From an uncultured Chloroflexota bacterium (lineage in GTDB: Bacteria; Chloroflexota; Anaerolineae; Promineifilales; Promineifilaceae): a DNA stretch of 64,000 nt. The stretch is taken from positions 3,875 to 67,874 of the forward strand of contig CAADGU010000415.1 in assembly GCA_900696625.1 (NCBI GenBank), read 5' to 3'. The position numbers and the translations under genes were made by a program. The notes beneath the pieces were generated by a model. It was not told where the DNA came from, ran no database searches, and worked only from the letters and a program-made list of their open reading frames with translations. How positions within the stretch are numbered: position 1 is the first letter of the stretch; every line of letters begins with the position of its first letter. Of the stretch, positions 3,734 to 63,950 are shown piece after piece.

Positions 3734-4111
3734 ATGTACCATATGGTTCTTCTCATTTTGAATGATCTGGATGACTGCACACCCGTCCTGGACGCCTGGG
3801 AAGCATTGGGTGTTGGCGGCATCACCATCCTGGAAAGCACCGGTCTAGGCCATGCCCGCAAATCAGGCATCCGCGAAAACATGCCCACCATGCCCTCGCT
3901 GGCCGACTTCTTCCGCCGTTCCGAACACCGCCACCGTACCATTTTCACCGTTGTAGACAGTGAGGAAATGGCCGATAAGCTCATTGAGGTCACGGAACAA
4001 ACCCTCGGCAATTTAGAAAGCGCCGACAATGGCGTCTTGTTTGTGCTGCCGGTTTCCAAAGCCAAAGGCATTCGCGGCGGCCAAAAACGGGCGCAGGAGC
4101 GGCGGGGGTGA
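3734..4111 (+). CDS. PII-like (GlnB-fold) small signalling protein
   Basis: 125 aa. 'MVLLILNDLDDCTPVLDAWEALGVGGITILESTGLG' aligns by eye with the beta1-alpha1-beta2 of PII proteins. SD aaggag. Starts 2 nt after the antiporter stop. Confidence 0.5.
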   Translation: MYHMVLLILNDLDDCTPVLDAWEALGVGGITILESTGLGHARKSGIRENMPTMPSLADFFRRSEHRHRTIFTVVDSEEMADKLIEVTEQTLGNLESADNGVLFVLPVSKAKGIRGGQKRAQERRG

Positions 4112-4266
4112 TGGGGTGAGCAGGTGAAGGGGCCGGTGGGCAGTGAGAGGTGAGCGGTGAGCAGGTGAGGGGGTGATGGGGTGATGGGGTGATGAGGTGA
4201 GGGGGTGATCACCAATCTCCCAATCTCCCCAACCTCCGGTTGGCAATCTCCCAATCTCCCGATTAC
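4106..4266. repeat. composite repeat, inverted copy of 1838-2008
   Basis: ggtgaaggggccggtgggcagtgag and gggtgatcaccaatctcccaatctccccaacctccggttggcaatctc are exact reverse complements of segments in 1838-2008. Overlaps the last codons of the PII-like gene. Confidence 0.85.
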
Positions 4267-7238: not shown

Positions 7239-7303
7239 GGAGATCAGGAGATTGGGGGATTGGGAGATTGAAAAGCATAATCTCTCAGCCTCCTAATCTC
7301 ATT
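7239..7303. repeat. heptamer array GGAGATY x4 followed by inverted AATCTC units
   Basis: ggagatcaggagattgggggattgggagattg aaaagcat aatctctcagcctcctaatctcatt. Lies between the vapC stop and the uvrC start. Confidence 0.7.
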
Positions 7304-7304
7304 C

Positions 7305-7727
7305 TTAATGCATCGGCCAGAGTTGAAACCCGGCCTGGACAAAATGGTGGTCAAAAGTAAATGCCTGATACAGTCCCAATTGGCGCATCAAGACAAAGCT
7401 GGTGCAATCGGTAAAGGCCCATGTCTTATCACTATAAGTCTGGAACATTTGCCAGGCTGCCCCCCATACGGCTTCATCCACGCGCACAAGTTCAACATTG
7501 CCGGCATTTAGTAACCAACGGCCAAATTGAACGGCCGCTGCGTGGTATGTGCGCGTAAGCAAGAAAGTAATCGCTTCATCAAAAACATAATCTGAAGTAA
7601 TCAGGCGCAGATGATAACTGCGCAACGATCTTAATGCCGCCGTCGCCACCGCATGATATTGATCTTGCCCATCGTAAAGGGCGATCCAACCACTGCTGTC
7701 CACGAACAACTCAATTTCATGTGTCAT
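7305..7727 (-). CDS. vapC: type II toxin, PIN-domain ribonuclease (VapC family)
   Basis: 140 aa. PIN acidic positions 'LFVDSSGWIAL', 'DEAITF', 'FTDCTSF', 'FDHHF'. Overlaps the upstream RHH gene. Confidence 0.85.
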   Translation of the reverse strand: MTHEIELFVDSSGWIALYDGQDQYHAVATAALRSLRSYHLRLITSDYVFDEAITFLLTRTYHAAAVQFGRWLLNAGNVELVRVDEAVWGAAWQMFQTYSDKTWAFTDCTSFVLMRQLGLYQAFTFDHHFVQAGFQLWPMH

Positions 7728-8007
7728 GCTCTACAGGATCCCAGTCTCGCGCATAGATGTATTTGTCATGATTAACAGAACCATCATTGACGCCACTTTT
7801 GATCATCCCAATTATTTCCCATATGGGGTCATCGTCCGTGAGGATGGGCGCCTGTGCCCTGGCTTCACCAGTGGCTACAACGTATTCCACCAGGGCTTCC
7901 CGAATCTGGTCAGCCATGGTGATGCCCTCCCGTTCGGCGCGGGCTTTGATCTGGTCGTAGATGTCTCGCGGCAGGTAAACCTGGGTACGTACCATATTTT
8001 CCGCCAT
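7717..8007 (-). CDS. vapB: type II antitoxin, ribbon-helix-helix (CopG/VapB-like)
   Basis: 'VRTQVYLPRDIYDQIKARAEREGITMADQIREAL' is an RHH pattern. ATG 8007 is preceded by GGAGG. 11-nt overlap with vapC. Confidence 0.8.
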   Translation of the reverse strand: MAENMVRTQVYLPRDIYDQIKARAEREGITMADQIREALVEYVVATGEARAQAPILTDDDPIWEIIGMIKSGVNDGSVNHDKYIYARDWDPVEHDT

Positions 8008-8220
8008 ATTTGCCTCCAACTGCCATTAGATGTATGGAGTATACATCTACGAATGATTGAGGGCAATTTCTTGACAAGTAGTGCCAGGCAAGGGGCTGTA
8101 TGGCCTTGGTCAATCAACATGGTTCTGCCCTTTGCCTGGTACTGCCTGGCGTATCAACAAAAAATTCGCGCACATACACACGGCCGTACCCGCTTTATGC
8201 TAGAATTGGCGGCAGAAATA

Positions 8221-8273
8221 GGGAGATTGGAGATTGGAGATGGACACATCTCTAGTCTCCAATCTCTAATCTC
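8221..8273. repeat. palindromic heptamer array (GGAGATT)n ... (AATCTCY)n
   Basis: gggagattggagattggagatggacacatctctagtctccaatctctaatctc, directly upstream of pcm. Confidence 0.7.
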
Positions 8274-8282
8274 AGATAACTT

Positions 8283-8951
8283 TTGAGTGAAAATTTGAGT
8301 ACCAACAATTTTACTACCAAACGTGAACGCATGGTACGGGAACAGATTATGGGGCGGGGTATTGAGGACACGGCCGTACTCCGCGCCATGCGCACTGTGC
8401 CCCGTGAACAATTTGTGTTGGACGAGTACCGCGACTACGCCTACGATGACAGCCCGCTGCCCATCCCTGCCCACCAGACCATCTCTCAACCGTATGTGGT
8501 CGCCTATATGCTGGAAGCGATGGATTTGCAGCCGCGGGATCGGGTGCTGGAAATTGGCGCGGGTTCGGGGTATGTGGCGGCGCTGCTCAGTCATATTGTG
8601 GCCGAAGTGCATACGGTGGAACGGCACGAGCGGCTGGTGTGGTATGCCCGTGAACGGCTGGCGGCGTTGGGCTATGACAATGTGTGGGTACATCATGGGG
8701 ATGGTTCACTCGGTTGGCCGCCGGCGGCGCCGTATGATGGCATTGTGGTAGCGGCGGGCGGGCCGATTGTGCCGCCCACACTCAAGCAGCAGATGAAAGT
8801 TCACGGCCGTCTGGTGATGCCGGTGGGTAAACGCGGCAGCCAAACCCTGGTGCGGCTGGTGCGCCTCAGCGACGACGACTACCAACACCTCAACCTCGGC
8901 CCTGTCAAGTTTGTGCCCCTGGTGGGGGAAGAGGGGTGGGGGAAAGAGTGA
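8283..8951 (+). CDS. pcm: protein-L-isoaspartate O-methyltransferase
   Basis: 'VLRAMRTVPREQFV', 'ISQPYVVAYMLE', SAM motif 'VLEIGAGSGY', 'PYDGIVVAAG'. The start may be TTG 8283 or ATG 8331. Confidence 0.9.
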   Translation: MSENLSTNNFTTKRERMVREQIMGRGIEDTAVLRAMRTVPREQFVLDEYRDYAYDDSPLPIPAHQTISQPYVVAYMLEAMDLQPRDRVLEIGAGSGYVAALLSHIVAEVHTVERHERLVWYARERLAALGYDNVWVHHGDGSLGWPPAAPYDGIVVAAGGPIVPPTLKQQMKVHGRLVMPVGKRGSQTLVRLVRLSDDDYQHLNLGPVKFVPLVGEEGWGKE

Positions 8952-9105
8952 GCGGTGGGCAGTGAGCGGTGAGCAGTGAGCAGTGAGCGGTGGGCAGTGA
9001 GCGGTGGGCAGTGAGCAGGTGAAAGGGTGACAAGGTGAGCTTTCAATCTCCCAATCTCTAATCTCCAGTCTCCCAATTACCAAATTACTCAATTACTCAA
9101 TTACC
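8947..9105. repeat. long short-unit array: (GTGAGCR/GTGGGCA)n, then (AATCTCY)n, then (AATTACY)n
   Basis: Read directly: gtgagcggtgggcagtgagcggtgagcagtgagcag... caatctcccaatctctaatctccagtctccc aattaccaaattactcaattactcaattac. Lies between the convergent pcm gene and the 9110 gene. Confidence 0.8.
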
Positions 9106-9109
9106 CTCC

Positions 9110-9775
9110 TCAAAACGGCCACAGCGATAAAATTAGAATGGCGGCGGCGGTGATGGTGAGGTTGTCCAGGCCCCAGATGGAGACGGCTTCGATGAGGGTG
9201 GTGACGACGGTGACGGTAAGGGCGGGGGCGATGGCTTGCAGGGGGGTGATGACCGGCGAGCCGGGAATCATCCACAAGGCCAGCCAGGTAAAGATCAAAC
9301 AGGCCACAAAAAAGCCCAGTGAGCCTTCGTAGGTGCGGGTGTGGGAAGCGACAATGTAGTGACGACGGCCGTAAGCCTTACCCACCACCGGCGCCATGCC
9401 ATCCCCCCACGTCAACGGCATCAAGGCGGCTACCATCAGCGGTGGTTGATCCCAGAACACCAGCGCCACCACCCCGGCTGCCAACGGAAAGTAGACCGTG
9501 CCCAGGTTAGAGCGGTCGCTGCTGGCCATGGCCGCAAAAAAGCCGTAGCGCCAATCCAGCAGGTTGATGATCATAAAAGCGACACAGGCAGCCACAAACG
9601 GCCAGGGATTATCAAAGAGGAAATGTAAAAACCAGCTCATCATGCCCACGCCAATGTGGATGACCTTGCGCGTAAAGCCGCTGCCATAGCCGCGCCAACG
9701 ACGCAGCCCTTCGGCCAGACCGATGATGGCAAAGACGTAGGTGAGACAGATGATGAAGCCGAGGAAATTGTTCAT
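9110..9775 (-). CDS. CTP-dependent polyprenol/phytol/diacylglycerol kinase-like membrane protein (CDP-alcohol / DolK-like family)
   Basis: 221 aa and polytopic. 'FTRKVIHIGVG' and 'GDGMAPVVGKAYGRR' motifs are typical of this family. Confidence 0.6.
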   Translation of the reverse strand: MNNFLGFIICLTYVFAIIGLAEGLRRWRGYGSGFTRKVIHIGVGMMSWFLHFLFDNPWPFVAACVAFMIINLLDWRYGFFAAMASSDRSNLGTVYFPLAAGVVALVFWDQPPLMVAALMPLTWGDGMAPVVGKAYGRRHYIVASHTRTYEGSLGFFVACLIFTWLALWMIPGSPVITPLQAIAPALTVTVVTTLIEAVSIWGLDNLTITAAAILILSLWPF

Positions 9776-11931: not shown

Positions 11932-13262
11932 GGGGGGCTGCCTTCTTCAGGGTTTTCAGGCAATAAGGGGTTAGCGGCCAACGCTCTGGCAGCCAGATCG
12001 CTGCGCAGTTCATCCAACTCGGCCAGCAGGGTGAGGGCATCCGGTTTTTGGCGCGATTGTTCGGCCATGCGCTCCAGCCCTTCGATCAGGCGTAGGGCGA
12101 CGATTTCACTGGTGCGGGTAGTGGCGCCGCTGCGCCGGGCGCGCTGGATGCCTTCCAAAATGGCCTGAATCATGGCCACTTCGGCTTCGGCGCGGGCGAT
12201 TTCAATCTCTTCTACGGCCGTTGCCTCGCCATCCGCCTTACTCAACCGCACTCTTTCTTGCCAGTGGGTGCGCCAAAAAGCAATGTACTGCGCTTCCACA
12301 TCCGGCGGCGGCTGTATCCGGTCAATATGCACCGAAAGCAGATCAATGCCCGCGTTAGCCAGTTCCGCGCGGGCCGCGCGCCACACCCCGCGCTGCAAAG
12401 TGCGGTACGGCTCATCGGTGCGGCCCGGCGGGTGCATCAGTTCATCCAGCCGGAGCCGCTCCACCGCCGCCGCCAGTCTGGCACGGGTGGTACCGGCCGG
12501 TCGGCTGTCCCAGGTGGCAGCAGCTCCGGTCGCCAGCACCGTTTGGGCATACGCCGCCGCTCTCACGGCCGCTTCGTCATAGGGATACGGTTTCGTTTTG
12601 CTGGGCTGTTCATCCCCCGTGCGAATGCGGTAGACGATGCTGAAGGTGACGGTCAGGTCAATGTTGTCCCTGGTACGCACCACCGCATCGGCAACTACCC
12701 GTTCCTGAGGGCGCAAATCGAGTACGGTGTGGACGTATTCAAAGGGGCGAAGCTGGTAACTGCCGGCAGAGATTATGCGGGCAAAACGGCCGTTATCCTC
12801 CGTCACCGCCGCCATATAAGGTTCCACCTTCACTTTACCCGGCCCACCCACCCGCAGCAGCACCGAGTTCGGCCGTTCAATTTCCAGGGTGTGGGGCAGA
12901 AGCGGCGCTGCTTTTTCGCCGGAGTATTCAGGTGAACGTAGACGGCTGAGAAAAAGGGCGGCCTCATCCCTGGTAGGCAAATCATACAAACGCTGGATCA
13001 TGCCCACCGTGGCGCTGTAGGCAAACCACCAGCCGACTGCGATGGGCAAGAAGTGGCGCAAAATAACCACAAACAGGGTAATAAATTCCCAGATAAGGGC
13101 GGTGGGTGGCAGCAGCAAGACCTCCGCCAGCCACGCCCGTAAATTGATGCCTTCCAAAAGCCACACGATGACAAAATAGGCAGCGAGCAAGCCATAGAGG
13201 CCCAGCGTAAACCAGCGCTGGCCGTGGGAAACGCGGGGCGGGGGCGCGGGACGGTTGGTCAC
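11928..13262 (-). CDS. membrane protein with SPFH/band-7-like domain and C-terminal coiled coil
   Basis: 444 aa with N-terminal TM helices. '..GPGKVKVEPYMAAV..LDLRPQERVV..TRDNIDLTVTFSIVYRI' is an SPFH-like pattern. GTGA overlap with the upstream paralogue. Confidence 0.6.
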   Translation of the reverse strand: MTNRPAPPPRVSHGQRWFTLGLYGLLAAYFVIVWLLEGINLRAWLAEVLLLPPTALIWEFITLFVVILRHFLPIAVGWWFAYSATVGMIQRLYDLPTRDEAALFLSRLRSPEYSGEKAAPLLPHTLEIERPNSVLLRVGGPGKVKVEPYMAAVTEDNGRFARIISAGSYQLRPFEYVHTVLDLRPQERVVADAVVRTRDNIDLTVTFSIVYRIRTGDEQPSKTKPYPYDEAAVRAAAYAQTVLATGAAATWDSRPAGTTRARLAAAVERLRLDELMHPPGRTDEPYRTLQRGVWRAARAELANAGIDLLSVHIDRIQPPPDVEAQYIAFWRTHWQERVRLSKADGEATAVEEIEIARAEAEVAMIQAILEGIQRARRSGATTRTSEIVALRLIEGLERMAEQSRQKPDALTLLAELDELRSDLAARALAANPLLPENPEEGSPP

Positions 13263-14692: not shown

Positions 14693-14766
<74 letters not shown>

Positions 14767-14826
14767 CCTGGCAGCAAAAACTGCCTCGTTCCTGCTAACT
14801 GTATTCAGTTGGTAAGGTGCGGACAA

Positions 14827-14872: not shown

Positions 14873-15082
14873 TTATTCAGATTTTTTAGTGCTGGCCAGC
14901 CGCTGCTGTTCAAAGGCTTCAATGTCCGACAAGGGGATGATGTAGGGGCTGGTTTTTGCTAACGGCCGTGACTTGTAAGCATTTGGGAATTCTCCGGCGC
15001 GGATCATGCGCCGGATTGTCATAGCAGATACACCCAATCGCTTTGCTGCATCAACCGCAGATATTGAATCTTGGTTCATCAT
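14873..15082 (-). CDS. excisionase-family helix-turn-helix DNA-binding protein
   Basis: 69 aa. 'ISAVDAAKRLGVSAMTIRRMIRAGEFP..YIIPLSDIEAF' matches the Xis/AlpA-type HTH pattern. Adjacent to attL. Confidence 0.7.
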   Translation of the reverse strand: MMNQDSISAVDAAKRLGVSAMTIRRMIRAGEFPNAYKSRPLAKTSPYIIPLSDIEAFEQQRLASTKKSE

Positions 15083-15197
15083 GACCGTTGCGTCTCCGTT
15101 CCTGTTGTGCTAGATGTTCAAACTATAGATGCATATTTTCATTTCGTCAATAGCAAAGATTTATTTAATTGCCAATATAAGGAGGAACAAAAATCAA

Positions 15198-16028
15198 ATG
15201 CGCAAACAACTTCTAGTTATTCTTCTTATTGCCCTTGTGGCAACTATTTTTGCCTGCTCGCCGGAACCTGAGACCGTGGAAGTGGAGGTGGAGGCCACAC
15301 GTGAGGTCACACGCGAGGTGGTGGTTACCGTAGAAGTCACGCGCCTGGTTGAAGTAACACCAGTAGCACCAACATCACTACCTGCGGCCTCTTTTGGCTC
15401 GGTAGAATGTGACGACTATACCGCCGCAGTGCGAGACTTGTCTCAACAGTGGTCAGACGCCTTCGACCTCGCATCGAGTACAGCACGTGTCTCTCTTGGG
15501 GACAGGGTGGCCGAGATGCAAGAGATCCGGCGCGAGATGTCAAGGCTAACCGAACCGGGGTGCGCCAGTCAGATAGAAGTCCAAGATCGGCTGGTTGAGA
15601 TGATGGATGCCGGAATCGAATTCTTCACTGAGTTCATGGCTCAAAACGACATTTCTGCGGAAAGTGCCCAATATGCCATAGCTGTTCACCTAACCCTTGA
15701 TGCTTTAGAGGCTCTCTATAATCATTCCACTAAACTGCCCAATCGAATCCATTACTACGCCCTGGGAACCACTGGGTTTTCCCTACGGTACGCAGATGAA
15801 AATGGGGAACTGATCACGCCGGAGGCAGGTCCCACAGAGCGATTCGGCTTTGATGATATGCCGGTCGTGTTTACCGCTCTTTTGCCCGAAGGGGAGACGG
15901 CTAAAGTAACCTTGTTTAACCCAACCAGCACAAGCGGGGATTTGACCTGTTTTATCCTGCTCAATGGAGAGGCCGTCGCAACCGAGACTCAAACAGCACA
16001 GACAACATGTGAGTTTGAAATCCCCTAG
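15198..16028 (+). CDS. lipoprotein of unknown function (moron-like, lower-GC island)
   Basis: 'MRKQLLVILLIALVATIFAC' is a signal peptide with a lipobox Cys. SD aaggagga lies 8-9 nt upstream of ATG 15198. Composition is visibly AT-richer. Confidence 0.6.
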   Translation: MRKQLLVILLIALVATIFACSPEPETVEVEVEATREVTREVVVTVEVTRLVEVTPVAPTSLPAASFGSVECDDYTAAVRDLSQQWSDAFDLASSTARVSLGDRVAEMQEIRREMSRLTEPGCASQIEVQDRLVEMMDAGIEFFTEFMAQNDISAESAQYAIAVHLTLDALEALYNHSTKLPNRIHYYALGTTGFSLRYADENGELITPEAGPTERFGFDDMPVVFTALLPEGETAKVTLFNPTSTSGDLTCFILLNGEAVATETQTAQTTCEFEIP

Positions 16029-16035
16029 ACAAACT

Positions 16036-16128
16036 ATGAAAAAAGTCATCTGGCCCATCGTCTGGCTGCTCACCGGCTTTGTGGCCGGGCTGCTGGTGGT
16101 GGCCCTGGTTTACTGGATTTTTTGGTAG
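16036..16128 (+). CDS. possible 30-aa single-TM peptide (MKKVIWPIVWLLTGFVAGLLVVALVYWIFW)
   Basis: Translated by hand. No clear SD. Lies directly after the lipoprotein gene. Confidence 0.25.
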   Translation: MKKVIWPIVWLLTGFVAGLLVVALVYWIFW

Positions 16129-16163
16129 TGGGGGTGGGTGGACGGCCGTGTTTGGAGGTGGCT

Positions 16164-16457
16164 ATGGCTCAACTGAATGAGAGGCAAAAGGATTTCTTGC
16201 GCTGGTGGGTGGGGGAAGAGACGGCCGGAAATGTGCCACGTGGCTTTGTTTCTGGCGCACGCACTTTGAAGGATGGTCTTCGCCTAGCTGTGCCTGGCCG
16301 GAAAGGGAGAGCGATAATGCCGGAGATTGGCGCGGCCGAGGTGGACGATCTGGTAGCCCGAAAGCTGCTGGCAATTCCTCTGGGACAAACGGATGTCTGG
16401 CAATTGACGCCTGCCGGTCGGCGGGCGGTAGCTGATGACTTCAAGCAGACGGACTAA
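16164..16457 (+). CDS. hypothetical protein
   Basis: ORF with an internal ATG at 16164 (MAQLNERQKDFLRWW..). No motif recognised. Confidence 0.45.
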   Translation: MAQLNERQKDFLRWWVGEETAGNVPRGFVSGARTLKDGLRLAVPGRKGRAIMPEIGAAEVDDLVARKLLAIPLGQTDVWQLTPAGRRAVADDFKQTD

Positions 16458-16761
16458 CGGCCGTCTGCGTTTCCGGCGCCGTCTCGGCGAACAACATCCA
16501 GCCCACGACCATCTCCCGTTGCAGGCGCACTTGCTGCACTCGCGTATCGGCTTTTTCCTCATAACGTCGGAGCAGGGCGCTGATGAGGAAGTTTAATGCC
16601 AACTGCAAGGGCGGCGGCGTTTCTGGCCCGGCTTGCGATTTCATAGCCACCTCGCCTGCGGCAAGTAGGGCATAGGCAGCTTCTTGCAGGGTGACGAAGT
16701 CGCCCGCGGCGATTTCGTCCAGATAAGTAGTGGAGATAGTTTTCGCGCTCATGCTCAGCAT
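16441..16761 (-). CDS. hypothetical protein
   Basis: 106-aa ORF convergent with, and overlapping by 17 nt, the 16164-16457 ORF. No SD seen. Confidence 0.4.
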   Translation of the reverse strand: MLSMSAKTISTTYLDEIAAGDFVTLQEAAYALLAAGEVAMKSQAGPETPPPLQLALNFLISALLRRYEEKADTRVQQVRLQREMVVGWMLFAETAPETQTAVSPSA

Positions 16762-16880
16762 GGTAACACGGCCGTATGCCCGTGTTCAATAGGCCAAAGA
16801 TACGGCCGTGTGTGGGCGTTGGCGCCGCGGCGATTGGTGACAAACCGGCGCGCCAGGCGCACGGCCGTGTCACCACCGTC

Positions 16881-16956
16881 ATTGATTCAATGATTCATTG
16901 ATGATGAATGATGACAATGAACATTGATCATTGATCATTGATCATCATCATCAATG
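16881..16956. other. AT-rich block built from ATGA/TCAT/TGATCAT units (three TGATCA sites)
   Basis: attgattcaatgattcattgatgatgaatgatgacaatgaacattgatcattgatcattgatcatcatcatcaatg. Strongly atypical for this GC-rich DNA. Non-coding. Confidence 0.8.
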
Positions 16957-16960
16957 CCCC

Positions 16961-17130
16961 GGATCAAATGATCCGCCACCTCTACCTCTGGTAAATGGCA
17001 TTTAGAGGCGGATCAAATGATCCGCCTCTACCCCCGGATCAAATGATCCGCCACCAGTGCCGGATCAAATGATCCGCCACCAGTGCCGGATCAAATGATC
17101 CGCCACCAGTGCCGGATCAAATGATCCGCC
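16961..17130. repeat. six iteron-like palindromic sites GGATCAAATGATCCGCC
   Basis: Copies start at 16961, 17010, 17036, 17062, 17088 and 17114, and the last four are spaced exactly 26 bp. Arms are CGGATCA/TGATCCG with a 2-bp spacer. Copy 2 has perfect 12-bp arms (agaggcggatca aa tgatccgcctct). Confidence 0.85.
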
Positions 17131-17320
17131 ACTGTCGCACAGTATTGTGCGCCACACAGTATAGGAAAAACGGTCGTTTGGCGGGGCAACGGCCGATGGG
17201 TGGGAAGCTGCTGGCGTGAGCAAAAAACCCCTCGGCCGTCTCATTCAACGGCCGTAAACGGCCGTGTAAGCTGTGGGCAACGGGTTATGAGAATCACACT
17301 TTGCAAAGTTGGGAGATGTT

Positions 17321-18343
17321 ATGAACGAATCAGAAAGTGAATCAGTGGCGCGGCCGACGGCCGTGTTGCCGACGGTCGTTGCCCAACCGGTGGATCAACG
17401 GCCGTCGGCCGTGTACCTGGCCGGGCTGTCGGCCGGCAGCCGGCGGACAATGGCGCAGTCGTTGGGCGCCATCGCCGCCATTATCAGCCCTTCGGCCCCT
17501 TCGGCCCCTTCGGCCCCTTCGGCAGGCTCAGGGGCCGGCACAGGGGACGGCTCAGGGGCCGGGGCCAGCCATCTGGAGATTCCCTGGCACCTGCTGCGCT
17601 TTCAGCACACGGCCGCGCTGCGCAGCCACCTGGCCGAGCATTATGCCCACAGCACGGCCAACAAGATGCTGAGCGCCTTGCGCGGTGTGTTGAAGGCGGC
17701 CTGGCGGTTGGGCTTAATGTCGGCCGAGGATTACCACGCGGCCGCGTCGGTGGCCAACGTGAAGGGGGAGCGGGTACCGGCCGGGCGGGCGCTGGCGGTG
17801 AGCGAGGTGCAGCTGCTGTTGGCGGCTTGCGCTTCGGCAAGCTCAGCGCAAGCTGCCCAGGGGCGGCGGGATGCGGCCGTTATTGCTACCCTGTATGCCT
17901 GTGGCCTGCGGCGGGGGGAGCTGGTGGGGCTGGACCTGGCCGATTACGATGGCCAGGCGCTGCGAGTGCGCCGGGGCAAGGGCAATAAGGAGCGGTTGGT
18001 GCCGGTGGCGGCCGCGGCGGCCGCGTACCTGGCGGCCTGGCTGGATGTGCGCGGCCACCGGCCGGGGCCGCTCTTCCATGCCCTGGACGGCCGTCACAAT
18101 GGCGGCCGCCTCAGCACGCAGACGATCTATGACATTTTGCAGGTGCGGGCACAGGCGGCCGGGATACGGCCGTTGTCGCCTCACGACTTCCGGCGCACCT
18201 TCGTCTCGCTGCTGCTGGACGCCGGCGAGGACATTGTGACGGTGCAGCGGCTGGCCGGGCACGCCAGCGTGGAGACGACGGCCCGTTACGACCGGCGGGG
18301 GGAGGATGTGAAGCGGCGGGCGGTGGAGAGGCTGCAATGGTAA
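17321..18343 (+). CDS. tyrosine recombinase (phage integrase / XerC-D-like), internal to the prophage
   Basis: 'ACGLRRGELVGL', 'GKGNKERLVPV', 'SPHDFRRTFVSLLLDAGEDIVTVQRLAGHASVETTARY' contain R..HxxR..Y catalytic residues. ATG 17321 follows gggaga. The N-terminus carries a SAPSAPSAP low-complexity insert. Confidence 0.85.
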   Translation: MNESESESVARPTAVLPTVVAQPVDQRPSAVYLAGLSAGSRRTMAQSLGAIAAIISPSAPSAPSAPSAGSGAGTGDGSGAGASHLEIPWHLLRFQHTAALRSHLAEHYAHSTANKMLSALRGVLKAAWRLGLMSAEDYHAAASVANVKGERVPAGRALAVSEVQLLLAACASASSAQAAQGRRDAAVIATLYACGLRRGELVGLDLADYDGQALRVRRGKGNKERLVPVAAAAAAYLAAWLDVRGHRPGPLFHALDGRHNGGRLSTQTIYDILQVRAQAAGIRPLSPHDFRRTFVSLLLDAGEDIVTVQRLAGHASVETTARYDRRGEDVKRRAVERLQW

Positions 18344-18406
18344 TTAGGAATGGAGATTGGTGTCACCGGCGCTGGCGCTGCGGCGCCAGGCTGTCACCAA
18401 CAGGAT

Positions 18407-18476
18407 GCCGGCAACAGCATGCCGGCAACAGCATGCCGGCAACAGCATGCCGGCAACAGCATGCCGGCAACAGCAT
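18407..18476. repeat. 14-bp tandem repeat GCCGGCAACAGCAT x5
   Basis: Five perfect head-to-tail copies at 18407, 18421, 18435, 18449 and 18463, beginning 64 nt after the recombinase stop. Confidence 0.9.
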
Positions 18477-18965: not shown

Positions 18966-19175
18966 CTAGTGAGGAATGTCATCCGAGGCCGCTGCCCAAT
19001 ACCCGGTTGGGCCTTCAATGGCCTGGCCGCGCATGGCCAGCAGCACCAGGCGGCTGGTGGCTTGCAGGATGGTGACGCCGGCGGCGTGGGCGATGGTGGC
19101 CACCGGCGTGGGGGTGGCGGTGAGCAGGCGGCCGATGAGCGCCTGTTGTTGCTCGTAGGGGGTGGGGTTGGTCAT
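18966..19175 (-). CDS. hypothetical small protein co-transcribed with the repressor
   Basis: 69 aa. The ATG overlaps the stop of the upstream XRE gene (ATGA at 19172-19175). Confidence 0.5.
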   Translation of the reverse strand: MTNPTPYEQQQALIGRLLTATPTPVATIAHAAGVTILQATSRLVLLAMRGQAIEGPTGYWAAASDDIPH

Positions 19176-19396
19176 GTGGTCTCGTCCTCATCAGCCACAT
19201 AGACAAAGATGTCACCGGGCTGCACCTCCAGCAACTGGCAGATCCGGGCCAGGGTGTCCAGGTCTATACGCTTGCTGCTGCCATGATACAAGGCGTGGGC
19301 AGTGTTGTAGGCGATATTTGCACCTTCAGCCAGGGCACTGATGTGCATACGCCTGGCACCCAAGATTTCAGAGAGTTGGTTCTTGATGTATCCCAT
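19172..19396 (-). CDS. XRE/Cro-CI family HTH repressor (short form, no peptidase domain)
   Basis: 'IKNQLSEILGARRMHISALAEGANIAYNTAHALYHG..IDLDTLARICQLLEVQPGDIF' is an HTH_XRE pattern. ATG 19396 is preceded by GGAGGC. Divergent from the early rightward genes. Confidence 0.75.
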   Translation of the reverse strand: MGYIKNQLSEILGARRMHISALAEGANIAYNTAHALYHGSSKRIDLDTLARICQLLEVQPGDIFVYVADEDETT

Positions 19397-19417
19397 AATT
19401 GTTTGCCTCCGCACTCT

Positions 19418-19505
19418 AGGGTACTCGACGGCCGCCAGATTGTCAAGGAAGTTGCACAAAATATGCAACTTGTTATTGACAATAGTATGCAACTTGTTGT
19501 ATAAT
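19418..19505. promoter_or_regulatory. divergent promoter/operator region (genetic switch)
   Basis: Plus strand: TTGACA 19476-19481, 18-bp spacer, TATAAT 19500-19505. Minus strand: TTGACA 19446-19441, 17-bp spacer, TACCCT 19423-19418. Direct repeats ATGCAACTTGTT at 19463 and 19487. Nested inverted repeats ATTGTCAA/TTGACAAT and GTTGCA/TGCAAC. Confidence 0.6.
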
Positions 19506-19544
19506 TTCCTTAGTTAGTTGATACGACCTAAGGAGATACAGACA

Positions 19545-19748
19545 ATGAAAACCAACCAATTCACCCACCTGAGCGACGCCGAACTGAACGAAGCCCTCTT
19601 CGGCATTAGTGAGCAACCCATCTACCGCCCGACCGTCACCGCGACCACCACCGAGCAACCCCGCCCCTACTGGAACAACCCAACCGCGCGCAGCAAGGAC
19701 TGGCGCGAACTGAGCGACGCCGAACTCAACGACGCGCTCTTTGGCTAG
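19545..19748 (+). CDS. hypothetical early protein with duplicated LSDAELNxALFG motif
   Basis: 67 aa. SD aaggaga lies 8 nt upstream of ATG 19545. First gene downstream of the consensus promoter. Confidence 0.55.
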   Translation: MKTNQFTHLSDAELNEALFGISEQPIYRPTVTATTTEQPRPYWNNPTARSKDWRELSDAELNDALFG

Positions 19749-19808: not shown

Positions 19809-20330
19809 ATGAAACCCACCCTGACCCAATTAACCCACCTGTCCACCGGCGATTACTTCGCCACCTGGCTGCGCAGCGGTACGACCGTCGAGTCCCTGCA
19901 CGGCAGCGACGGCCGTTGCCTGGCCTCTTCCCTGGGGGCGAAGCTGCCCCGCCTGACAAAGGCAGAGATGGCGGCCGCCCACGCGGAGCGCCACCCGGCC
20001 TACGACCTGGCTGCCCAGGGCACGGCCGCCCGGCCAGAACTGGCGCGGCGGATGCAGGCAGCGGCCGACCTGGTCGCCGGTGGCCTGGTGACGCTGTACG
20101 AAGACGGCGCGGGCATTGTGGCCAGCCGCAGCCATGCCTGCGCCCACCAGGTGGACGACCACCACTGCGACTGCCAGGACTTTCAGTTTCGCGGTAGCTG
20201 GTGCGCCCATCGTATCGCCCGGCGCATGGCGCTGGCCTTGGGGCAGCCGGAACTGGTACGGCCGTTTGTGGCCCCGGCCGCCTTTCCCCAACCCCGTTTA
20301 TCCATTAGCGCGCCGTCACCGGCTGGCTAA
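19809..20330 (+). CDS. SWIM zinc-finger domain protein
   Basis: 'HHCDCQDFQFRGSWCAHRIA' fits the CxC..CxH SWIM signature. SD ggagga upstream. Confidence 0.7.
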   Translation: MKPTLTQLTHLSTGDYFATWLRSGTTVESLHGSDGRCLASSLGAKLPRLTKAEMAAAHAERHPAYDLAAQGTAARPELARRMQAAADLVAGGLVTLYEDGAGIVASRSHACAHQVDDHHCDCQDFQFRGSWCAHRIARRMALALGQPELVRPFVAPAAFPQPRLSISAPSPAG

Positions 20331-21669: not shown

Positions 21670-22263
21670 ATGGCCATCACCAAAAAATCGCCGCTGACGG
21701 GCAAACAGCTGGCGTTTATTGACTACTACTTCATTTGCGACTTCAACGGCACAGAGGCGGCCCGGCGCGCCGGGTACAAGGGCGACGATGCTACGTTGGC
21801 AGCCATCGCCTACGAAAACCTCAGAAAGCCTCATATTGCTGCCGAGATTCGCCGCCGCACCAAAACACGAGGGATGGATGCGGACGAAGTCATCGGCCGC
21901 CTGAGCGACCAGGCACGGGGTACGATGGGGCATTTCCTGAACTTCGAGGGCGGCCGCCAGGTGGAGATTGACCTGAACCAGGCGCGGGAATTGGGGGCGC
22001 TGGGCCTCATCAAGAAAATAAAAATGGTGGAGACCGTCTCCCCCAGTGGAGATGAGGAAATTGTACTCACCCGCCGCACCGAGATTGAGCTATACCCCTC
22101 CCAGCAAGCATTGGCCCACCTGGCGCGTATCCTGGGGCTGATGGGCGCCAAGGGGACTGAGGAAGACCCGCTGCACGTGGAGATTCCGGGCCTGAACGCC
22201 GCCCTCACCCGCATCTACGGCCGTGACCATGACAACGACGCCAACGCCAACGGCCGAACTTGA
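21670..22263 (+). CDS. terS: terminase small subunit
   Basis: 'LTGKQLAFIDYYFICDFNGTEAARRAGYKGDDATLAAIAYENLRKPHIAAEI' is the typical Terminase_2/P27-type N-terminal HTH. Sits immediately upstream of terL. Confidence 0.8.
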   Translation: MAITKKSPLTGKQLAFIDYYFICDFNGTEAARRAGYKGDDATLAAIAYENLRKPHIAAEIRRRTKTRGMDADEVIGRLSDQARGTMGHFLNFEGGRQVEIDLNQARELGALGLIKKIKMVETVSPSGDEEIVLTRRTEIELYPSQQALAHLARILGLMGAKGTEEDPLHVEIPGLNAALTRIYGRDHDNDANANGRT

Positions 22264-23736: not shown

Positions 23737-23780
23737 AAACGGCCGCGTGAACCACTGCATCACGCGGCCGTTTCGGTTTT
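23737..23780 (+). terminator. hairpin terminator downstream of terL
   Basis: aaacggccgcgtga (23737-23750) / tcacgcggccgttt (23760-23773), followed by cggtttt. Confidence 0.55.
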
Positions 23781-23880
23781 GGTGCCACCGGCGCACCCAC
23801 GTCGCCGTGCGGGTGTCACCATTTTCCTATTTCCCCACGCCCCGGCCGGGATACAATACACACATCATTTCTTTCTCGCA

Positions 23881-30395: not shown

Positions 30396-30917
30396 ATGGA
30401 CGAATTACGACCCGGCCAGGCCATCACCACGCCTATGGGCAGCATGATTGTCACGGCCGTGGGCCTGCCCAACAGCTGCACCGGCTGTGGCCAGCCACAG
30501 ATTGGCTTCTGGCTGGCCCGCCACCAGGACGAAGCCCGCAGCGGCGGCGGCCGTTGCCCCACGTGCGCCGGATTGGTGACAGAAACAGCTTCCCAGGAAG
30601 AGACGGCTGACACCAATGACACGGCCGATGACCCCACCGGCAATGGCGACGGCTCAAACGAAGAGCCGGAAATGGTGACAGCCGGCGCAAGCCAGGCTGA
30701 GGGCGCTGACACCAATGATGACACGGCCGTGCCTAACGATCTGACCATCATCAAGGGTATTGGTCCGGCGCGCCGGGACGAGTTGGCCCAACTGGGCATC
30801 ACCACGTTCACGGCGCTGGCTGCGGCCGATATAGCGTTCCTGGACACGGCCCTTGAGGTCAACCGGGCGCAGATCGCCGACTGGATAAGCCAGGCGGCGC
30901 AACTGGCGGCGCAATAA
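30396..30917 (+). CDS. hypothetical protein: N-terminal zinc-ribbon (CTGCG..CPTC), acidic linker, C-terminal helix-hairpin-helix
   Basis: 'IIKGIGPARRDELAQLGITTFTALAAAD' is an HhH-like pattern. ATG 30396 follows ggaga. Confidence 0.55.
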   Translation: MDELRPGQAITTPMGSMIVTAVGLPNSCTGCGQPQIGFWLARHQDEARSGGGRCPTCAGLVTETASQEETADTNDTADDPTGNGDGSNEEPEMVTAGASQAEGADTNDDTAVPNDLTIIKGIGPARRDELAQLGITTFTALAAADIAFLDTALEVNRAQIADWISQAAQLAAQ

Positions 30918-42809: not shown

Positions 42810-44228
42810 ATGGCACTGGTAATCACGCAGCGAATTAGCGCCAACACAGGTCAAACATCACAGGGCAGTTATACAACTGCCTCATTCACACCTGCGGCTA
42901 ATTCGCTGTGTTTTGTTTTCTGTATAGGACAACGAGACAACCATTCATCGGCGCGGAGCTGGACAGTCAGCGGCGGGGGATACACCTGGACCAAATTGAA
43001 TGAGTCCACCCTGTACCCCTGGGAGAACCTTGACATATACTCACTGAATGCAGTTTGCTGGTACACCGCCGTAGGCGCGTCTCCGGCAGCAATGACTGTC
43101 ACCGTTGACGCCAGCGCAAATAACGAAGTTTACAGTGTGGTCATTTTTGATGTCACCGGTCACGACGCTGCTACGCCATTTCCGCAATCCAGCGTGCACA
43201 ATGGCGCGACGTTTAACCCGGCCACCAACAGCGGCACCGGCACATTGACCTTGGGCAGTAATCCACTCAGCAGCCATATGGTGATCGGTATGTTTGGCGC
43301 AGGCGCTGATGGCGGCGGGGGCCTGGCCACACCCGCCGGATACACTGCTTTAATCAATCAGAATACATCGTACACGCAGTCGGCCGTTTTCTACCGAACC
43401 GGGACTACATCCCCGGCCATTACCTGTGACGACCTTGGCCAGGCGGTCGGGAACTGGGCTGGGATCGCCTTCGCAATCGCCGCGGCGTCTGACGCAGCTG
43501 TGGTACCGGCCGCAACCGCAACGCTCAGCCTGGTCGGGCAGACGGCCGTTATTGTGCCCGGCGGCATGGCCATTACGGCCGATCTCGCCCTCATTGGGCT
43601 GGATGGACAGACGGCCGTTATTGTGCCCGGCGGCATGGCCATTACGGCCGATCTCGCCCTCATTGGGCTGGATGGGCAGACGGCCGTTATTGTGCCCGGC
43701 GGCATGGCCATTACGGCCGATCTCGCCCTCATTGGGCTGGATGGGCAGACGGCGATTGTCGCGCCCGGCGGCGTCAATATCGAGACGGCCGCCGGCACAT
43801 TAACCATCACCGGCGAAAGCGTTCTGGTACTCTCTGGCGGCTCATTGATTCAGGCAACGCCCGGTCTGCTTAATTTAGCCGGGCAAACGGCCGTGGTTTT
43901 ACCGGGGAGCATCAGCCTGGGGCTGGCGGTCGCAGAATTGGCGTTGGCCGGGCAAACGGCCGTGGTATTGCCCGGCACTGTGAGCATCCAGGCGGCCGCA
44001 GGTGAGCTGGCGATTTCCGGGCAGACGGCCGCGCTGCTGCCCGGCGCGGTGGCAGTGGCGGTGGCGGCCGGTGTGCTGAGCGTAACCGGGCTGTCGCTGG
44101 AAAGTATTGGCGAGGCGGCGTTTGTGGCCCTGGGGCGGCCGTTTGCGGCCGAAGAGATCGCCCGCTTTTTTGCCCAGGGCGTGATGACCTTTGATAACAA
44201 GGGCATCGTGTCATTTACCGTAATCTGA
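42810..44228 (+). CDS. fibre-like structural protein with tandem 23-aa repeats
   Basis: 472 aa. N-terminal globular half, then about 10 units of the '(L)xGQTAVxxPGxxxIxxxxxxLxL' type, of which three are nearly identical at the DNA level. Confidence 0.6.
   Translation: MALVITQRISANTGQTSQGSYTTASFTPAANSLCFVFCIGQRDNHSSARSWTVSGGGYTWTKLNESTLYPWENLDIYSLNAVCWYTAVGASPAAMTVTVDASANNEVYSVVIFDVTGHDAATPFPQSSVHNGATFNPATNSGTGTLTLGSNPLSSHMVIGMFGAGADGGGGLATPAGYTALINQNTSYTQSAVFYRTGTTSPAITCDDLGQAVGNWAGIAFAIAAASDAAVVPAATATLSLVGQTAVIVPGGMAITADLALIGLDGQTAVIVPGGMAITADLALIGLDGQTAVIVPGGMAITADLALIGLDGQTAIVAPGGVNIETAAGTLTITGESVLVLSGGSLIQATPGLLNLAGQTAVVLPGSISLGLAVAELALAGQTAVVLPGTVSIQAAAGELAISGQTAALLPGAVAVAVAAGVLSVTGLSLESIGEAAFVALGRPFAAEEIARFFAQGVMTFDNKGIVSFTVI
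43539..43745. repeat. 69-bp tandem repeat x3 inside the CDS
   Basis: Copies at 43539, 43608 and 43677. Copies 2 and 3 are identical, and copy 1 differs at one base (last position). Confidence 0.9.
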
Positions 44229-52128: not shown

Positions 52129-52451
52129 GCGCCTCCTTTGCTGATGTAAAGCAGCGACCCGCCGACGAATGCGCCGGAGATGAGGATGAAGATGCCGACG
52201 GCGGCGGTTGTCGCGCCGGAGAATCGCGCCGGGGGGTCTGGTGTGGGGGGCTGGATGGCGGCCGTTACCTGGTTATTACGGCCGTTAATGGCAATGGCGA
52301 CACCGCCGTCGCCGCGCACCTCGGCGCTCGTTTCTGGCGAGAAGAGGCGCGTGTCCAGCGTGATGTCGCGGGGGATGACCATGGCCATCAACACGGCGCC
52401 TACAACCAGGCCGAAGATCAGGGTGGAAAAAGAAAAGGTAGATTGTTTCAT
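52125..52451 (-). CDS. small membrane protein
   Basis: ATG 52451 follows gaggaa and overlaps the upstream stop (ATGA). It has an N-terminal and a C-terminal TM segment. Confidence 0.55.
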   Translation of the reverse strand: MKQSTFSFSTLIFGLVVGAVLMAMVIPRDITLDTRLFSPETSAEVRGDGGVAIAINGRNNQVTAAIQPPTPDPPARFSGATTAAVGIFILISGAFVGGSLLYISKGGA

Positions 52452-56482: not shown

Positions 56483-56575
56483 GTGATTTCTCCATCTGGT
56501 TGCGGGTTGATAAAGCTGGTTGATAAAATCGGCCGTTTGCGGTTCTTACGGCCGTGTGAAATAAGGAGGTGTACA

Positions 56576-57717: not shown

Positions 57718-57759
57718 TTGACATCGTAGAGGTCACAAGTTCAAGTCTTGTACCGCCCA
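57718..57759. repeat. attR core (displaced 3' part of tRNA-Val; not a functional tRNA)
   Basis: Identical to 14725-14766. The upstream sequence does not supply the 5' half of a tRNA. Confidence 0.9.
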
Positions 57760-63905: not shown

Positions 63906-63950
63906 GTGAGGCCAATCTCTTAATCTCCTAATCTCTCAATCTCAAATTTC
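63906..63950. repeat. heptamer array (AATCTCY)n
   Basis: ggccaatctcttaatctcctaatctctcaatctcaaat, upstream of the M1 peptidase gene. Confidence 0.7.

Follow-up and report, generated by a model that had tools for sequence, protein, structure and literature searches.

A lineage-specific palindrome array beside an A+T-rich block in a Chloroflexota prophage: a candidate replication-origin-type site

In an uncultured Chloroflexota bacterium, a prophage of 43 kb inserted at tRNA-Val carries a compact non-coding module in which a 76-bp A+T-rich block (16879-16956) is followed by six copies of CGGATCAAATGATCCGCC, with start-to-start distances of 49, 26, 26, 26 and 26 bp. Positions are those of the window, the whole 64,000-nucleotide stretch of DNA that was analysed. 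The module is present in three related phage lineages, namely that of the window, that of L001 (record JACTMP010000070.1) and that of L004 and L099 (the latter being record Ga0395804_0000759), and all of them keep the block and the 49/26-bp spacing. Samples containing these phages include those of the ERR3169463-74 and SRR352064xx series. The module is a selected, lineage-specific, single-copy cis element of the phage. The array looks like a docking platform for a DNA-binding protein, and a replication origin resembling that of lambda is the role that we judge, tentatively, to be the most likely one. A preliminary description had placed the A+T-rich block and six GATC-bearing palindromes upstream of the inner recombinase in a "560-bp non-coding gap", and the sequence is as it said, the gap running over 16762-17320 (559 bp).

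Anatomy and uniqueness of the module

The locus and the prophage ends comprise the following features:

14693-14768: tRNA-Val
14725..14766, + strand: attL core, a 42-bp direct repeat over the 3' part of tRNA-Val, with its repeat partner at 57718-57759
16835..16875, no strand: hairpin/inverted-repeat element of 41 bp, TGGTGACA-N25-TGTCACCA, at the left edge of the module
16879..16956, no strand: A+T-rich block with TCATTGA/CATTGA repeats and three TGATCA, ending in CATTGAT-CATCATC-ATCAATG
16960..16977, + strand: site 1, CGGATCAAATGATCCGCC, 49 bp ahead of site 2
16992..17004, no strand: small palindrome TAAATGGCATTTA, within the 35-bp spacer of sites 1 and 2
17003..17030, + strand: site 2, the longest palindrome (28 bp), TAGAGGCGGATCA-AA-TGATCCGCCTCTA
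17035..17130, + strand: sites 3 to 6, four CGGATCAAATGATCCGCC at 17035, 17061, 17087 and 17113
17130..17165, no strand: right flank CACTGTCGCACAGTATTGTGCGCCACACAGTATAGG with two CACAGTAT within, identical in L001 and L096
17244..17272, + strand: putative recombinase promoter, by its hexamers TTCAAC-17 nt-TAAGCT
17284..17309, + strand: 'rec-box' dyad GTTATGAGAA-TCACAC-TTTGCAAAGT, which accompanies the recombinase family
17321..18343, + strand: inner XerD-like tyrosine recombinase, 340 aa (Pfam Phage_integrase, 2e-29)
57718..57759, + strand: attR core

The six exact GGATCAAATGATCC cores (starts 16961, 17010, 17036, 17062, 17088 and 17114) all have the same orientation. Site 2, with 13-nt arms that are 100% complementary, is perfect apart from its AA centre, and sites 3 to 6 follow it in exact 26-bp phase. 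The 26-bp phasing had been noticed before but assigned to the last four sites, whereas it extends over five (sites 2 to 6, four 26-bp intervals). Treated as a tandem repeat, the phased array has a period of 26, 4.8 copies and 94% matches. Since each phased site is a 24-bp near-palindrome, GTGsCGGA-TCAAATGA-TCCGsCAC, and site 2 extends to 28 bp, the 26-bp units tile with almost no spacer. Like any palindrome, the units fold into hairpins; an RNA element was rejected, as the Rfam search matched the tRNA alone and the orientation of the unit flips between relatives, altering the loop sequence.

The block is built from TCATTGA-type heptads, has about 31% G+C against 59% for the window and ranks within the window's three most A+T-rich 80-bp stretches; it holds weak promoter-like hexamers on both strands and no strong promoter consensus. 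The 41-bp hairpin element to its left is one of six such elements in the prophage (chance expectation 0) and folds at -29 kcal/mol. L001 and L099 have it at the corresponding position, with arms that differ by a compensatory change. In L099 a + strand gene ends immediately before it, the stop codon adjoining the element, which thus acts in the manner of a terminator or boundary element.

Outside the array the window has no further copy of the motif, its 21 kb of host flank included. When up to three mismatches are allowed there are 17 matches, 12 of them inside the array (six cores on both strands), and none of the five outside it has fewer than three mismatches; shuffled sequences give 5.15 matches on average, and 0 of 100 reach 17. 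Nor are there copies in 116 other loci or elsewhere in about 1 Mb of fetched loci. Each phage has a single locus, and on this coverage a dispersed genomic repeat of REP or MITE kind, which the preliminary description had named as a finding that would count against it, was rejected. A CRISPR-like or integron-like cassette array was rejected as well, as there are no spacers and the cargo genes are without flanking site copies; the inner recombinase itself scores far under the integron-integrase cut-off.

The 15 GATC in 250 bp at the array are the maximum of the window (the runner-up stretch has 5), but they trace back to a single repeated unit that has two GATC and a heptad that has one, and are not independent events. 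The count given earlier was correct, but the weight placed on GATC is reduced, since L004 and L099 have a single GATC in each site (TTACTCC being the right half-site) and yet the same architecture, which means that GATC itself is not the conserved feature, as it would have to be in an element controlled by Dam. Cumulative AT skew has its minimum at 16838, where transcription polarity switches; GC skew gives no signal at the array and a detrended minimum near 52 kb. No DnaA boxes were found. The 18-bp repeats at 53075-53191, considered as a rival origin, fall within the long minus-strand reading frame 52448-53518 and have the appearance of a coding repeat.

What is conserved between related phages

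The register of 49/26/26/26(/26 or 25) bp is identical in the window, L001 and L004/L099, and so is the contact between the block and site 1, AATG-N-CCCGGATC. The window and L001 have six sites each; L099, in which the site sequence has drifted to CCGGATCAATTACTCC with the spacing retained, has five. The block is kept in L001, and in L004/L099 its CATTGA repeats and (TCA)n-AATG end are kept, while the right flank at 17130..17165 is not present there. A register that stays constant in spite of drifted sites is expected for a complex of fixed geometry and for concerted evolution of the binder and its sites. Slippage alone, expanding a functionless tandem repeat, would explain why sites 3 to 6 are nearly identical and why the copies evolve in concert within each lineage, but it would hardly preserve 5-6 sites, the 49/26-bp register and the A+T block in three lineages despite the change of unit, and we regard it as the least probable of the explanations considered here.

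The surroundings of the module are far less constant. On the left there is a divergent gene in the window and L001 and a co-directional one in L099; on the right the recombinase gene follows in the window and L001, and two inserted genes (1.3 kb) in L099; the cargo genes differ on both sides across the three lineages. As the neighbours change while the module stays, it behaves as a self-contained cassette. Outside the three lineages no instance was found in the sequences searched: there was no array upstream of 80 more distant recombinase-family loci in a genome scan with the recombinase alignment (0/80), none upstream of two family members 65% identical by BLASTP, none analogous at more distant terminase relatives and no further instance in a protein scan of viral contigs. 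Pattern scans gave six unrelated tandem repeats in viral contigs and one chance match in metagenomes, and GenBank phages no DNA match and one weak partial protein match. In the literature on Chloroflexota phages or cyanobacterial plasmids, we found no described system of this kind.

What could bind the array then? The immunity repressor and the DnaD-like replication protein both differ between two phages that share identical sites. Operators for the HTH_26 immunity repressor (gene at 19172-19492) were therefore rejected, this gene being absent from L001, and so were the products of the small adjacent genes 16164-16457 and 16441-16761 as binders, which are likewise not conserved in L001. The DnaD_N-like protein (55571-56482) is the only replication-like protein detected and is encoded 3.4 kb from the array on the circular map; homologues of it were not detected beyond its own phage, hence not in the L001 genome either, which counts against it as the binder. 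Further candidate binders encoded by the phage are the inner recombinase, the small terminase subunit, Xis (14873-15082), a 76-aa product (19518-19748) and a SWIM protein (19809-20330). Of the preliminary proposal, the origin-like layout of an A+T tract and dyad repeats stands and gains from the identical spacing in the relatives. Among the scanned reading frames, many of which match no family in the early region, there is no ParA, ParB, Rep or serine recombinase, in agreement with the earlier statement that no Rep or ParB gene lies beside the array.

Origin, recombination locus or operator

For an origin-type role we envisage that a dimeric sequence-specific protein would bind the six 16-18-bp palindromes (core CGGATCA-NN-TGATCCG), that the 49/26/26/26/26-bp register would let the bound dimers assemble into one higher-order complex, and that this complex would form beside an A+T-rich tract that melts or bends readily. 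An origin, used after excision or induction, would then be made up of an unwinding element and of iterons with dyad symmetry centred on A/T. Binding at the sites, melting of the block and a replication start there are what we infer from the layout: iteron or lambda-type origins have at least three repeated sites, for which the six, six and five putative initiator sites of the window, L001 and L099 suffice, and a putative unwinding block touches site 1 in all lineages. Site orientation flips without loss of the module, as expected for binding of a symmetric dimer.

In ori-lambda, four palindromic 18-19-bp iterons with A-rich centres, spaced by about two helical turns, lie inside the initiator gene O and are accompanied by an A+T-rich region. 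The module shares with it the dyad repeats with an A/T-rich centre beside an A+T-rich tract, found once per genome. It differs in that the array is intergenic and 3.4 kb from the only replication-like gene, has six sites at 26 bp (2.5 turns) and goes with no recognisable O-like protein, the DnaD-like protein not being common to the sister phage. Several of these differences also argue against an origin. An origin normally changes together with its initiator, and we see the array neither in or next to an initiator gene nor changing with one; int, attP, xis and cargo separate it from the early-left operon. In favour of an origin, in the free phage genome of L099 the array is about 2.9 kb from a DnaA_N-domain gene heading the leftward early operon, a position taken by the DnaD_N-like gene in the window. 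Against it, the 26-bp step is about 2.5 helical turns, while iterons usually stand at whole numbers of turns; DnaA boxes are missing and GC skew lends no support; and A+T richness is not specific, since the two other most A+T-rich spots of the window are promoter regions.

The array adjoins a recombinase gene in four of four instances (190 bp upstream of it in the window, within 1.4 kb in L099), and segments bounded by its sites are inverted between lineages; these two observations fit recombination as well as, or better than, an origin. The palindromes would in this case be sites of core type, two arms around an 8-bp centre, to which the neighbouring XerD-like recombinase binds. They would be used to resolve multimers or to cyclise the genome, the additional copies playing an accessory part, much as in Tn4430 IRS/TnpI or P1 lox/cre. 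The sites read 8-8-8, and site 2, at 28 bp as long as a dif site, reads 10-8-10. The arms CCGGA/TCCGG (4-5 bp per arm) are constant across lineages and the changes are confined to the 8 bp in the middle (TCAAATGA, TCATTTGA, TCAATTAC), which do not vary within an array but differ between lineages; inverted arms around an identical centre of 6-8 bp are typical of tyrosine-recombinase sites, and strand exchange depends on identity of the centre. The L001 segment from site 2 to site 6 is reversed relative to the window (91% identity in reverse, 70% direct; in the spacers, by hand count, 39/48 against 23/48 matches), and BLAST aligns the two segments in reverse at 90%. The spacer of sites 1 and 2 holds CCTCTACCTCTGGTA, the reverse complement of TACCAGAGGTAGAGG in the L004/L099 spacer (an inverted 15-mer). 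In L001, sites 1 and 6 have the flipped centre TT in place of AA, in site 1 with unchanged flanks, and the extended palindrome of site 2 is retained through changes on both arms (GTGGGGGATCA..TGATCCCCCAC).

The enzyme itself aligns to residues 56-279 of the E. coli XerD chain and scores below the NCBIfam XerC/XerD cut-offs. In favour of a recombination locus, it has all the catalytic residues, the R..K..H..R..H..Y positions being invariant in the family alignment. Full-length homologues are found on many cyanobacterial plasmids and on an 8.4-kb Thermaerobacter plasmid, mostly one per plasmid (a single matching place in all but 2 of 25 listed records), as for resolvase-type enzymes. Loci of similar core-plus-extra-repeat design are integron attI1 and crs/rsd of a Salmonella plasmid. 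Extra recombinase-binding repeats beside a core are established for Tn4430, where the simple tyrosine recombinase TnpI binds the core site and additional repeats of the IRS, which comprises one inverted pair with an ATTA spacer and two direct accessory motifs in 116 bp (PMC2847244). The array is like the IRS in lying upstream of a recombinase gene, in having several copies of one motif and in a palindromic core whose sole asymmetry is a short A/T spacer (ATTA there, AA here), but it has six complete palindromes, and the recombinase family has another dyad and other members that are without the array.

Indeed, the absence of the array from the 80 distant loci and the two 65%-identical members argues against this explanation, as does the family's own dyad: a dyad of the rec-box type stands just 5' of the start codon in 27/89 family loci, against 1.1% of control windows, its arms co-vary, and in the window it occurs once, with a sequence unrelated to the array sites. 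Strong conservation within a site covers 16-18 bp, a length that operators and iterons have, and the outer arms vary between copies. Site sequence does not track the recombinase tree: the L001 allele is 67% identical to that of the window and has identical sites, whereas the L099 allele is 72% identical and its sites are changed (in DNA, the recombinase genes of the three lineages are about 75-77% identical), so the site type does not co-vary with the recombinase. In L099 two genes (1.3 kb) separate array and recombinase gene. Same-phage contigs from two other samples cross sites 1-3 in the window orientation and without a branch, so that there is no sign of frequent switching or orientation polymorphism over these sites, and palindrome-mediated template switching can also give inversions. 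Taken with the absence of a recognisable arm-binding domain, this leaves a recombination locus, in our view, rather improbable. A bolder version, in which all six are complete tandem crossover sites forming a multi-site platform for the XerD-like recombinase, is more doubtful than that. If true, it would be unlike the single-site lox, dif or IRS systems, and recombination among copies or sister genomes would invert and reshuffle the locus, which could then be a spot of cargo-gene exchange, given that cargo differs on both sides of the module.

Accessory arm sites, also put forward initially, are unlikely. Sites of arm type lie within about 150 bp of an att core and are bound by an N-terminal arm-binding domain, whereas the array is 2.1 kb from the att core (attL) of the outer integrase, the other of the two recombinases (about 56564-57658), and the inner one is XerD-like, has no such domain and belongs to a family with a different conserved dyad at its own gene. 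The att core recurs in L099 as an intact attP between int and xis. The reading frame 15129-16028 is a lipoprotein-like cargo gene and not a recombinase. A similarity to hix/gix is found in the 26-bp unit, which reads 12-2-12 with the AA dinucleotide as sole asymmetry, and in the inversions between sites. Yet hix sites are pairs around an invertible gene segment and not a tandem array, and serine-invertase sites of this kind were rejected, no serine recombinase gene having been found in the scanned prophage reading frames.

Another rather unlikely candidate is an array of operator or enhancer-like kind, bound by some phage transcription regulator that is not the immunity repressor. Its task would be to control the divergent cargo and recombinase units, or to silence the prophage at this end. 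The array sits at the polarity switch, with the recombinase gene running rightward and the gene on the other side leftward; the module is preceded by a terminator-like hairpin, and dimeric helix-turn-helix regulators usually have palindromes of 16-18 bp. A stretch of L001, GGGTCATTTGATCC (12140-12153), matches the site at 13 of 14 positions and overlaps the -35 of a strong early-right promoter, TTGACT-17-TATAAT (by a rough estimate, such a match would turn up in 21 kb with a probability of about 0.007), but the window's own early-right promoter has no equivalent single site. Moreover, no array site overlaps a recognisable promoter: the last one ends more than 110 bp upstream of the recombinase promoter at 17244-17272, the hexamers and spacing of which are the same in L001, L004 and L096. 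The flanking genes vary by lineage while the module is constant, there is no candidate regulator beside it (16164-16457, 16441-16761 and 19172-19492 not being conserved in L001), and six exactly spaced sites exceed the needs of known phage operators.

Packaging and partition

P1 pac spans 162 bp with seven TGATCA/G hexamers and an IHF site, and the array resembles it, and clusters of oriR/oriC type, in its dense GATC hexamers or heptamers within 160-250 bp; the TGATCA heptad repeat of the A+T block is reminiscent of the GATC heptamers of P1 oriR. In the present case the host belongs to the Chloroflexota, a related lineage has only one GATC left of the two in each site, and the terminase genes are 4.5 kb away. 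Could the array be a pac site for the small terminase subunit, with clustered hexamers flanking the cut? All 15 GATC lie in KGATCA hexamers (3 TGATCA and 12 GGATCA), and L099 retains 7 KGATCR, although half of its hexamers are lost. The phage has headful-type Terminase_2 and Terminase_3 genes followed by a DNA methylase gene, and L099 an SPP1-type portal. Divergence of the small subunit parallels that of the sites (93% identity to the window in L001 with the same sites, 74% in L099 with changed sites), but any backbone protein gives the same pattern. In known cases the small terminase gene contains the pac site or adjoins it, whereas here this gene (21670-22263) is 4.5 kb downstream of the array with the swappable immunity region between, and upstream of it we see a terminator and a promoter-like stretch and no repeats. 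A packaging site is thus improbable.

A centromere-like partition site of sopC or parS type is very unlikely. F sopC has 12 copies at a 43-bp period beside sopAB, and the array shares its design of tandem direct repeats, each with a 16-bp inverted repeat (dimer-binding in sopC), and occurs once per replicon. The parS-like centromere suggested at first has lost ground in that, unlike in F, no partition genes were found: no partition ATPase or centromere-binding gene of ParA, ParB, ParM or TubZ type is present among the scanned reading frames, many early genes there being without a family. The element also belongs to an integrating prophage, and as the phage integrates at tRNA-Val with int and xis, partition is not needed. 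An origin-type site remains the role that we tentatively prefer.

Taken alone, the element resembles known designs of repeats with an A+T tract and so overturns nothing. To our knowledge, phages of Chloroflexota (Ardenticatenaceae, Promineifilaceae) are almost unstudied. These two families include filamentous bacteria of wastewater sludge. In a prophage most of whose early genes match no known family, a delimited and conserved cis element gives a concrete handle, and the identity of its binder would reveal the phage's initiator, recombination system or regulator. The element could also supply a part, be it an origin, a resolution site or an operator, for genetic tools, of which the phylum has few.

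Anatomy of the array and of the prophage around it

The window carries a prophage of ~43 kb, whose main features, together with the repeat families found inside it and in its host flanks, are the following.

1842-1995, 4104-4260, 7239-7270, 8222-8273, 8947-9106 and 63914-63943: tandem repeats of the host flanks
14725-14766 and 57718-57759: att direct repeat of 42 bp, the first copy in the 3' part of tRNA-Val
adjoining attL: excisionase-like gene (xis), HTH_17
16835-16875, 18358-18399, 23780-23821, 30574-30615, 30673-30714 and 55143-55184: hairpin elements of 41-42 bp
16879-17130: A+T-rich block and palindromic sites
17284-17309: dyad between promoter and start codon of the recombinase gene (rec-box)
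17321-18343 (+): recombinase gene
19172-19492: Cro/CI-type gene
from 21670: terminase genes, small and large
55571-56482: DnaD_N-like gene
adjoining attR: large tyrosine integrase gene

The sequence agrees with the preliminary description in that an A+T-rich block is followed by six palindromic repeats. The block (76 bp) is made of TCATTGA/CATTGA repeats, including three TGATCA, and the sites share an exact GGATCAAATGATCC core, starting at 16961, 17010, 17036, 17062, 17088 and 17114, in a single orientation throughout. Tandem Repeats Finder scores the array as 4.8 copies of a 26-bp unit (94% matches). The phasing described earlier is indeed exactly 26 bp, but it runs through five sites and not four, with site 1 standing 49 bp before site 2. 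Since the phased units are 24-bp near-palindromes (GTGsCGGA-TCAAATGA-TCCGsCAC), they tile the segment nearly without spacers; site 2 is a 28-bp palindrome with the AA centre as its sole imperfection. At up to 3 mismatches the motif has 17 matches in the window, 12 of them within the array (six cores, both strands counted) and 5 outside it, each of the latter with at least 3 mismatches, while shuffled sequence gives a mean of 5.15 matches and none of 100 shuffles reaches 17. The 15 GATC claimed for the array were counted again (15 in 250 bp, the window maximum; the runner-up stretch has 5), but GATC itself is not the conserved trait, since the related phage L099 retains only one GATC per site.

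A variable cargo region lies between xis and the array (15049-16746 in the window, 7268-9292 in the related prophage L001, 1925-2832 in L099). It holds a lipoprotein-like gene and two small genes in the window, an HSDR_N-domain gene and other small genes in L001, and an LTD-domain gene in L099; a 30-aa membrane peptide (window ~16036-16128) is the sole cargo gene common to window and L001. Reading frame 15129-16028 was rejected as a recombinase, its product being lipoprotein-like. Tandem 13-bp units (GCGGGTTGATAAA and GCTGGTTGATAAA, 56502-56527), just upstream of the DnaD_N-like gene and before the integrase gene, may be the operator or promoter of a leftward early operon. A 69-bp tandem repeat (43536-43772, 3.4 copies, 95% matches) falls within a 472-aa reading frame (42810-44228) downstream of a 1491-aa tail-region gene.

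The six hairpin elements (TGGTGNCA-N25/26-TGNCACCA; 0 expected by chance) are all within the prophage, positioned past the 3' ends of genes (recombinase, large terminase, capsid region) and where stretches of mosaic homology with L001 begin or end. The block, the array and the recombinase gene together are bracketed by two of them. L001 and L099 have such elements too, and a role as terminators or boundary sequences is possible. The octamer palindrome ACGGCCGT occurs 119 times in 64 kb against 1.8 expected (next 8-bp palindrome, 24), near the array for example at 16768, 16802, 16861, 17248 and 17258. Its density is 1.4-2.1 per kb in the host flanks and 2.0 per kb in the prophage, and loci from related Ardenticatenaceae, Promineifilaceae and Leptofilum genomes are rich in it as well. 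It seems to be a highly iterated palindrome specific to this lineage, much as HIP1 is in cyanobacteria. The many heptamer/octamer tandem repeats of the host flanks (GGAGATT, CAATCTC, AGTGAGC, GGTGAGGG) are reminiscent of the short tandemly repeated sequences known from filamentous cyanobacteria.

The array in related phages

The array was found in four instances from three lineages. L001 (GCA_014584575.1), a sister prophage, occupies the same tRNA-Val locus in a related host and has the same block with six sites. It is 81% identical to the window in the host flank and 88% in the phage backbone at the DNA level, and at the protein level 97% in the large terminase and only 67% in the recombinase. 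L096, a short contig, begins within the array and encodes a recombinase 79% identical to that of the window. In L004/L099 (recombinase 72%, large terminase 83% identical) the block is followed by five sites of altered sequence, CCGGATCAATTACTCCGG, spaced by 49, 26, 26, 26 (then 25) bp. L099 (JGI 3300037470, Ga0395804_0000759, 44.7 kb) is an unintegrated phage genome whose attP, intact and lying between int and xis, matches the 42-bp core of the window but for one mismatch; it also has a third recombinase gene, XerC/D-like, immediately before the small terminase gene, and a weak D12-class (Dam-like) methylase after an N6_N4 methylase. Further arrays were found neither in viral contigs or a metagenome pattern scan, nor at 80 genome loci whose recombinases are more distantly related, at two recombinase homologues of 65% identity (BLASTP) or among more distant terminase relatives. 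The module is therefore not a dispersed genomic repeat, which the preliminary description had considered, but an element conserved, in single copy, within one small clade of phages.

Between lineages the unit sequence changes in concert, yet the geometry stays exactly the same, and this speaks for a nucleoprotein complex whose shape is fixed. The extended palindrome of site 2 is preserved in L001 via changes in both arms. On the left the neighbour is a divergent gene in two lineages and a co-directional one in the third, and on the right the recombinase gene in two and an inserted gene in the third. Since its neighbours change, the module is autonomous rather than an operator belonging to a particular promoter. 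In L001 the site 2-6 segment stands in reverse-complement orientation relative to the window (91% identity reversed vs 70% direct; BLAST aligns it in reverse at 90%), in L099 a 15-mer from the spacer between sites 1 and 2 is inverted, and sites 1 and 6 have AA centres in the window and TT in L001. From such comparisons the array sites are apparent breakpoints of rearrangements between lineages.

The recombinase and its own dyad

The recombinase gene, 190 bp downstream of the array, encodes a XerD-like simple tyrosine recombinase; all catalytic residues are present (family alignment), and an arm-binding domain was not recognised in it. Anaerolineae, Ardenticatenaceae and Promineifilaceae genomes commonly carry homologues at 45-57% identity, and many cyanobacterial plasmids have full-length ones (42-47% identity), mostly one per plasmid. 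In-frame tandem repeats at 17488-17562 (CCCTTCGGC x4 and GGCCGGCTCAGG x3.5) encode an insert of low complexity, SPSAPSAPSAPSAGSGAGTGDGSGAGAS, within the N-terminal domain. In total length the closest homologues fall short of this protein by 14-26 residues. A second phased array just downstream of the gene (18398-18476; 14-bp unit CAACAGCATGCCGG, 5.6 copies, 98% matches), each unit including the 8-bp palindrome TGCCGGCA, is absent at the equivalent place in L001, L004 and L096.

Does this recombinase act on the array sites, making the array a recombination locus? All instances adjoin a recombinase gene (in L099 with two extra genes between), the sites show a core-like arms-centre-arms layout with constant arms and centres that differ between lineages, and inversion endpoints fall in them. 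However, the array was not found in the other family members searched, its sequence goes with the phage backbone instead of following the recombinase tree, and same-phage contigs from two other samples traverse sites 1-3 in one orientation. Moreover, the family has a dyad of its own, the rec-box, between promoter and start codon in 27 of 89 loci vs 1.1% of control windows. Its window copy, GTTATGAGAA-TCACAC-TTTGCAAAGT, occurs once and shows no sequence relation to the array sites. The two arms of the dyad co-vary (GAGAA/TTCTC, GAAAA/TTTTC, GACAA/TTGT) around a variable centre of 5-6 bp, as in CTAGTTATGAAAA-TAACCA-TTTTCAAAACTAG of the family locus L012, and the family promoter type is TTGACA-17-TATTTT. 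The rec-box could be a recombinase core site, an (autoregulatory) operator or a 5'-leader hairpin. Recombination at the array itself we consider rather unlikely.

Possible functions of the array

An origin is the best apparent anatomical match to the layout. Ori-lambda has dyad-symmetric repeats with A/T centres next to an A+T-rich tract, and the array is alike in its dyad-symmetric repeats, A/T centres and adjacent A+T-rich tract. Against this, no DnaA boxes and no skew signal were found at the array, the phasing corresponds to 2.5 helical turns, and no homologue of the DnaD_N-like protein was detected outside its own phage, yet the sites of L001 are identical. An origin-type assembly site is our first-ranked reading, proposed only tentatively. 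If the array is an origin, its initiator must be among the unassigned proteins common to the phages. Candidate DNA-binding proteins encoded by both the window and L001 comprise Xis, the recombinase, a 76-aa early protein, a SWIM protein and the small terminase subunit. Excluded as binders were the immunity repressor and the products of the small neighbouring genes, which are not conserved in L001 despite the identical sites.

Binding of a regulator is suggested by GGGTCATTTGATCC in L001 (12140-12153), a 13/14 match to an array site which overlaps the -35 of the early-right promoter TTGACT-17-TATAAT, but the window's own early-right promoter is without an equivalent, and we consider a regulator-binding array just as unlikely as recombination. 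A P1-like pac site would fit the KGATCA hexamers and the way in which the small terminase subunit diverges, but not the distance of 4.5 kb from the terminase genes, and we regard it as more unlikely still. A centromere, for which partition genes were not found among the reading frames scanned, is very unlikely, and so is an array with no function; what probability remains is left to readings beyond these. The array is a real, selected cis element. It appears to belong to a known kind in which phased protein-binding repeats adjoin an A+T-rich tract, here in a phage group that is almost unexplored.
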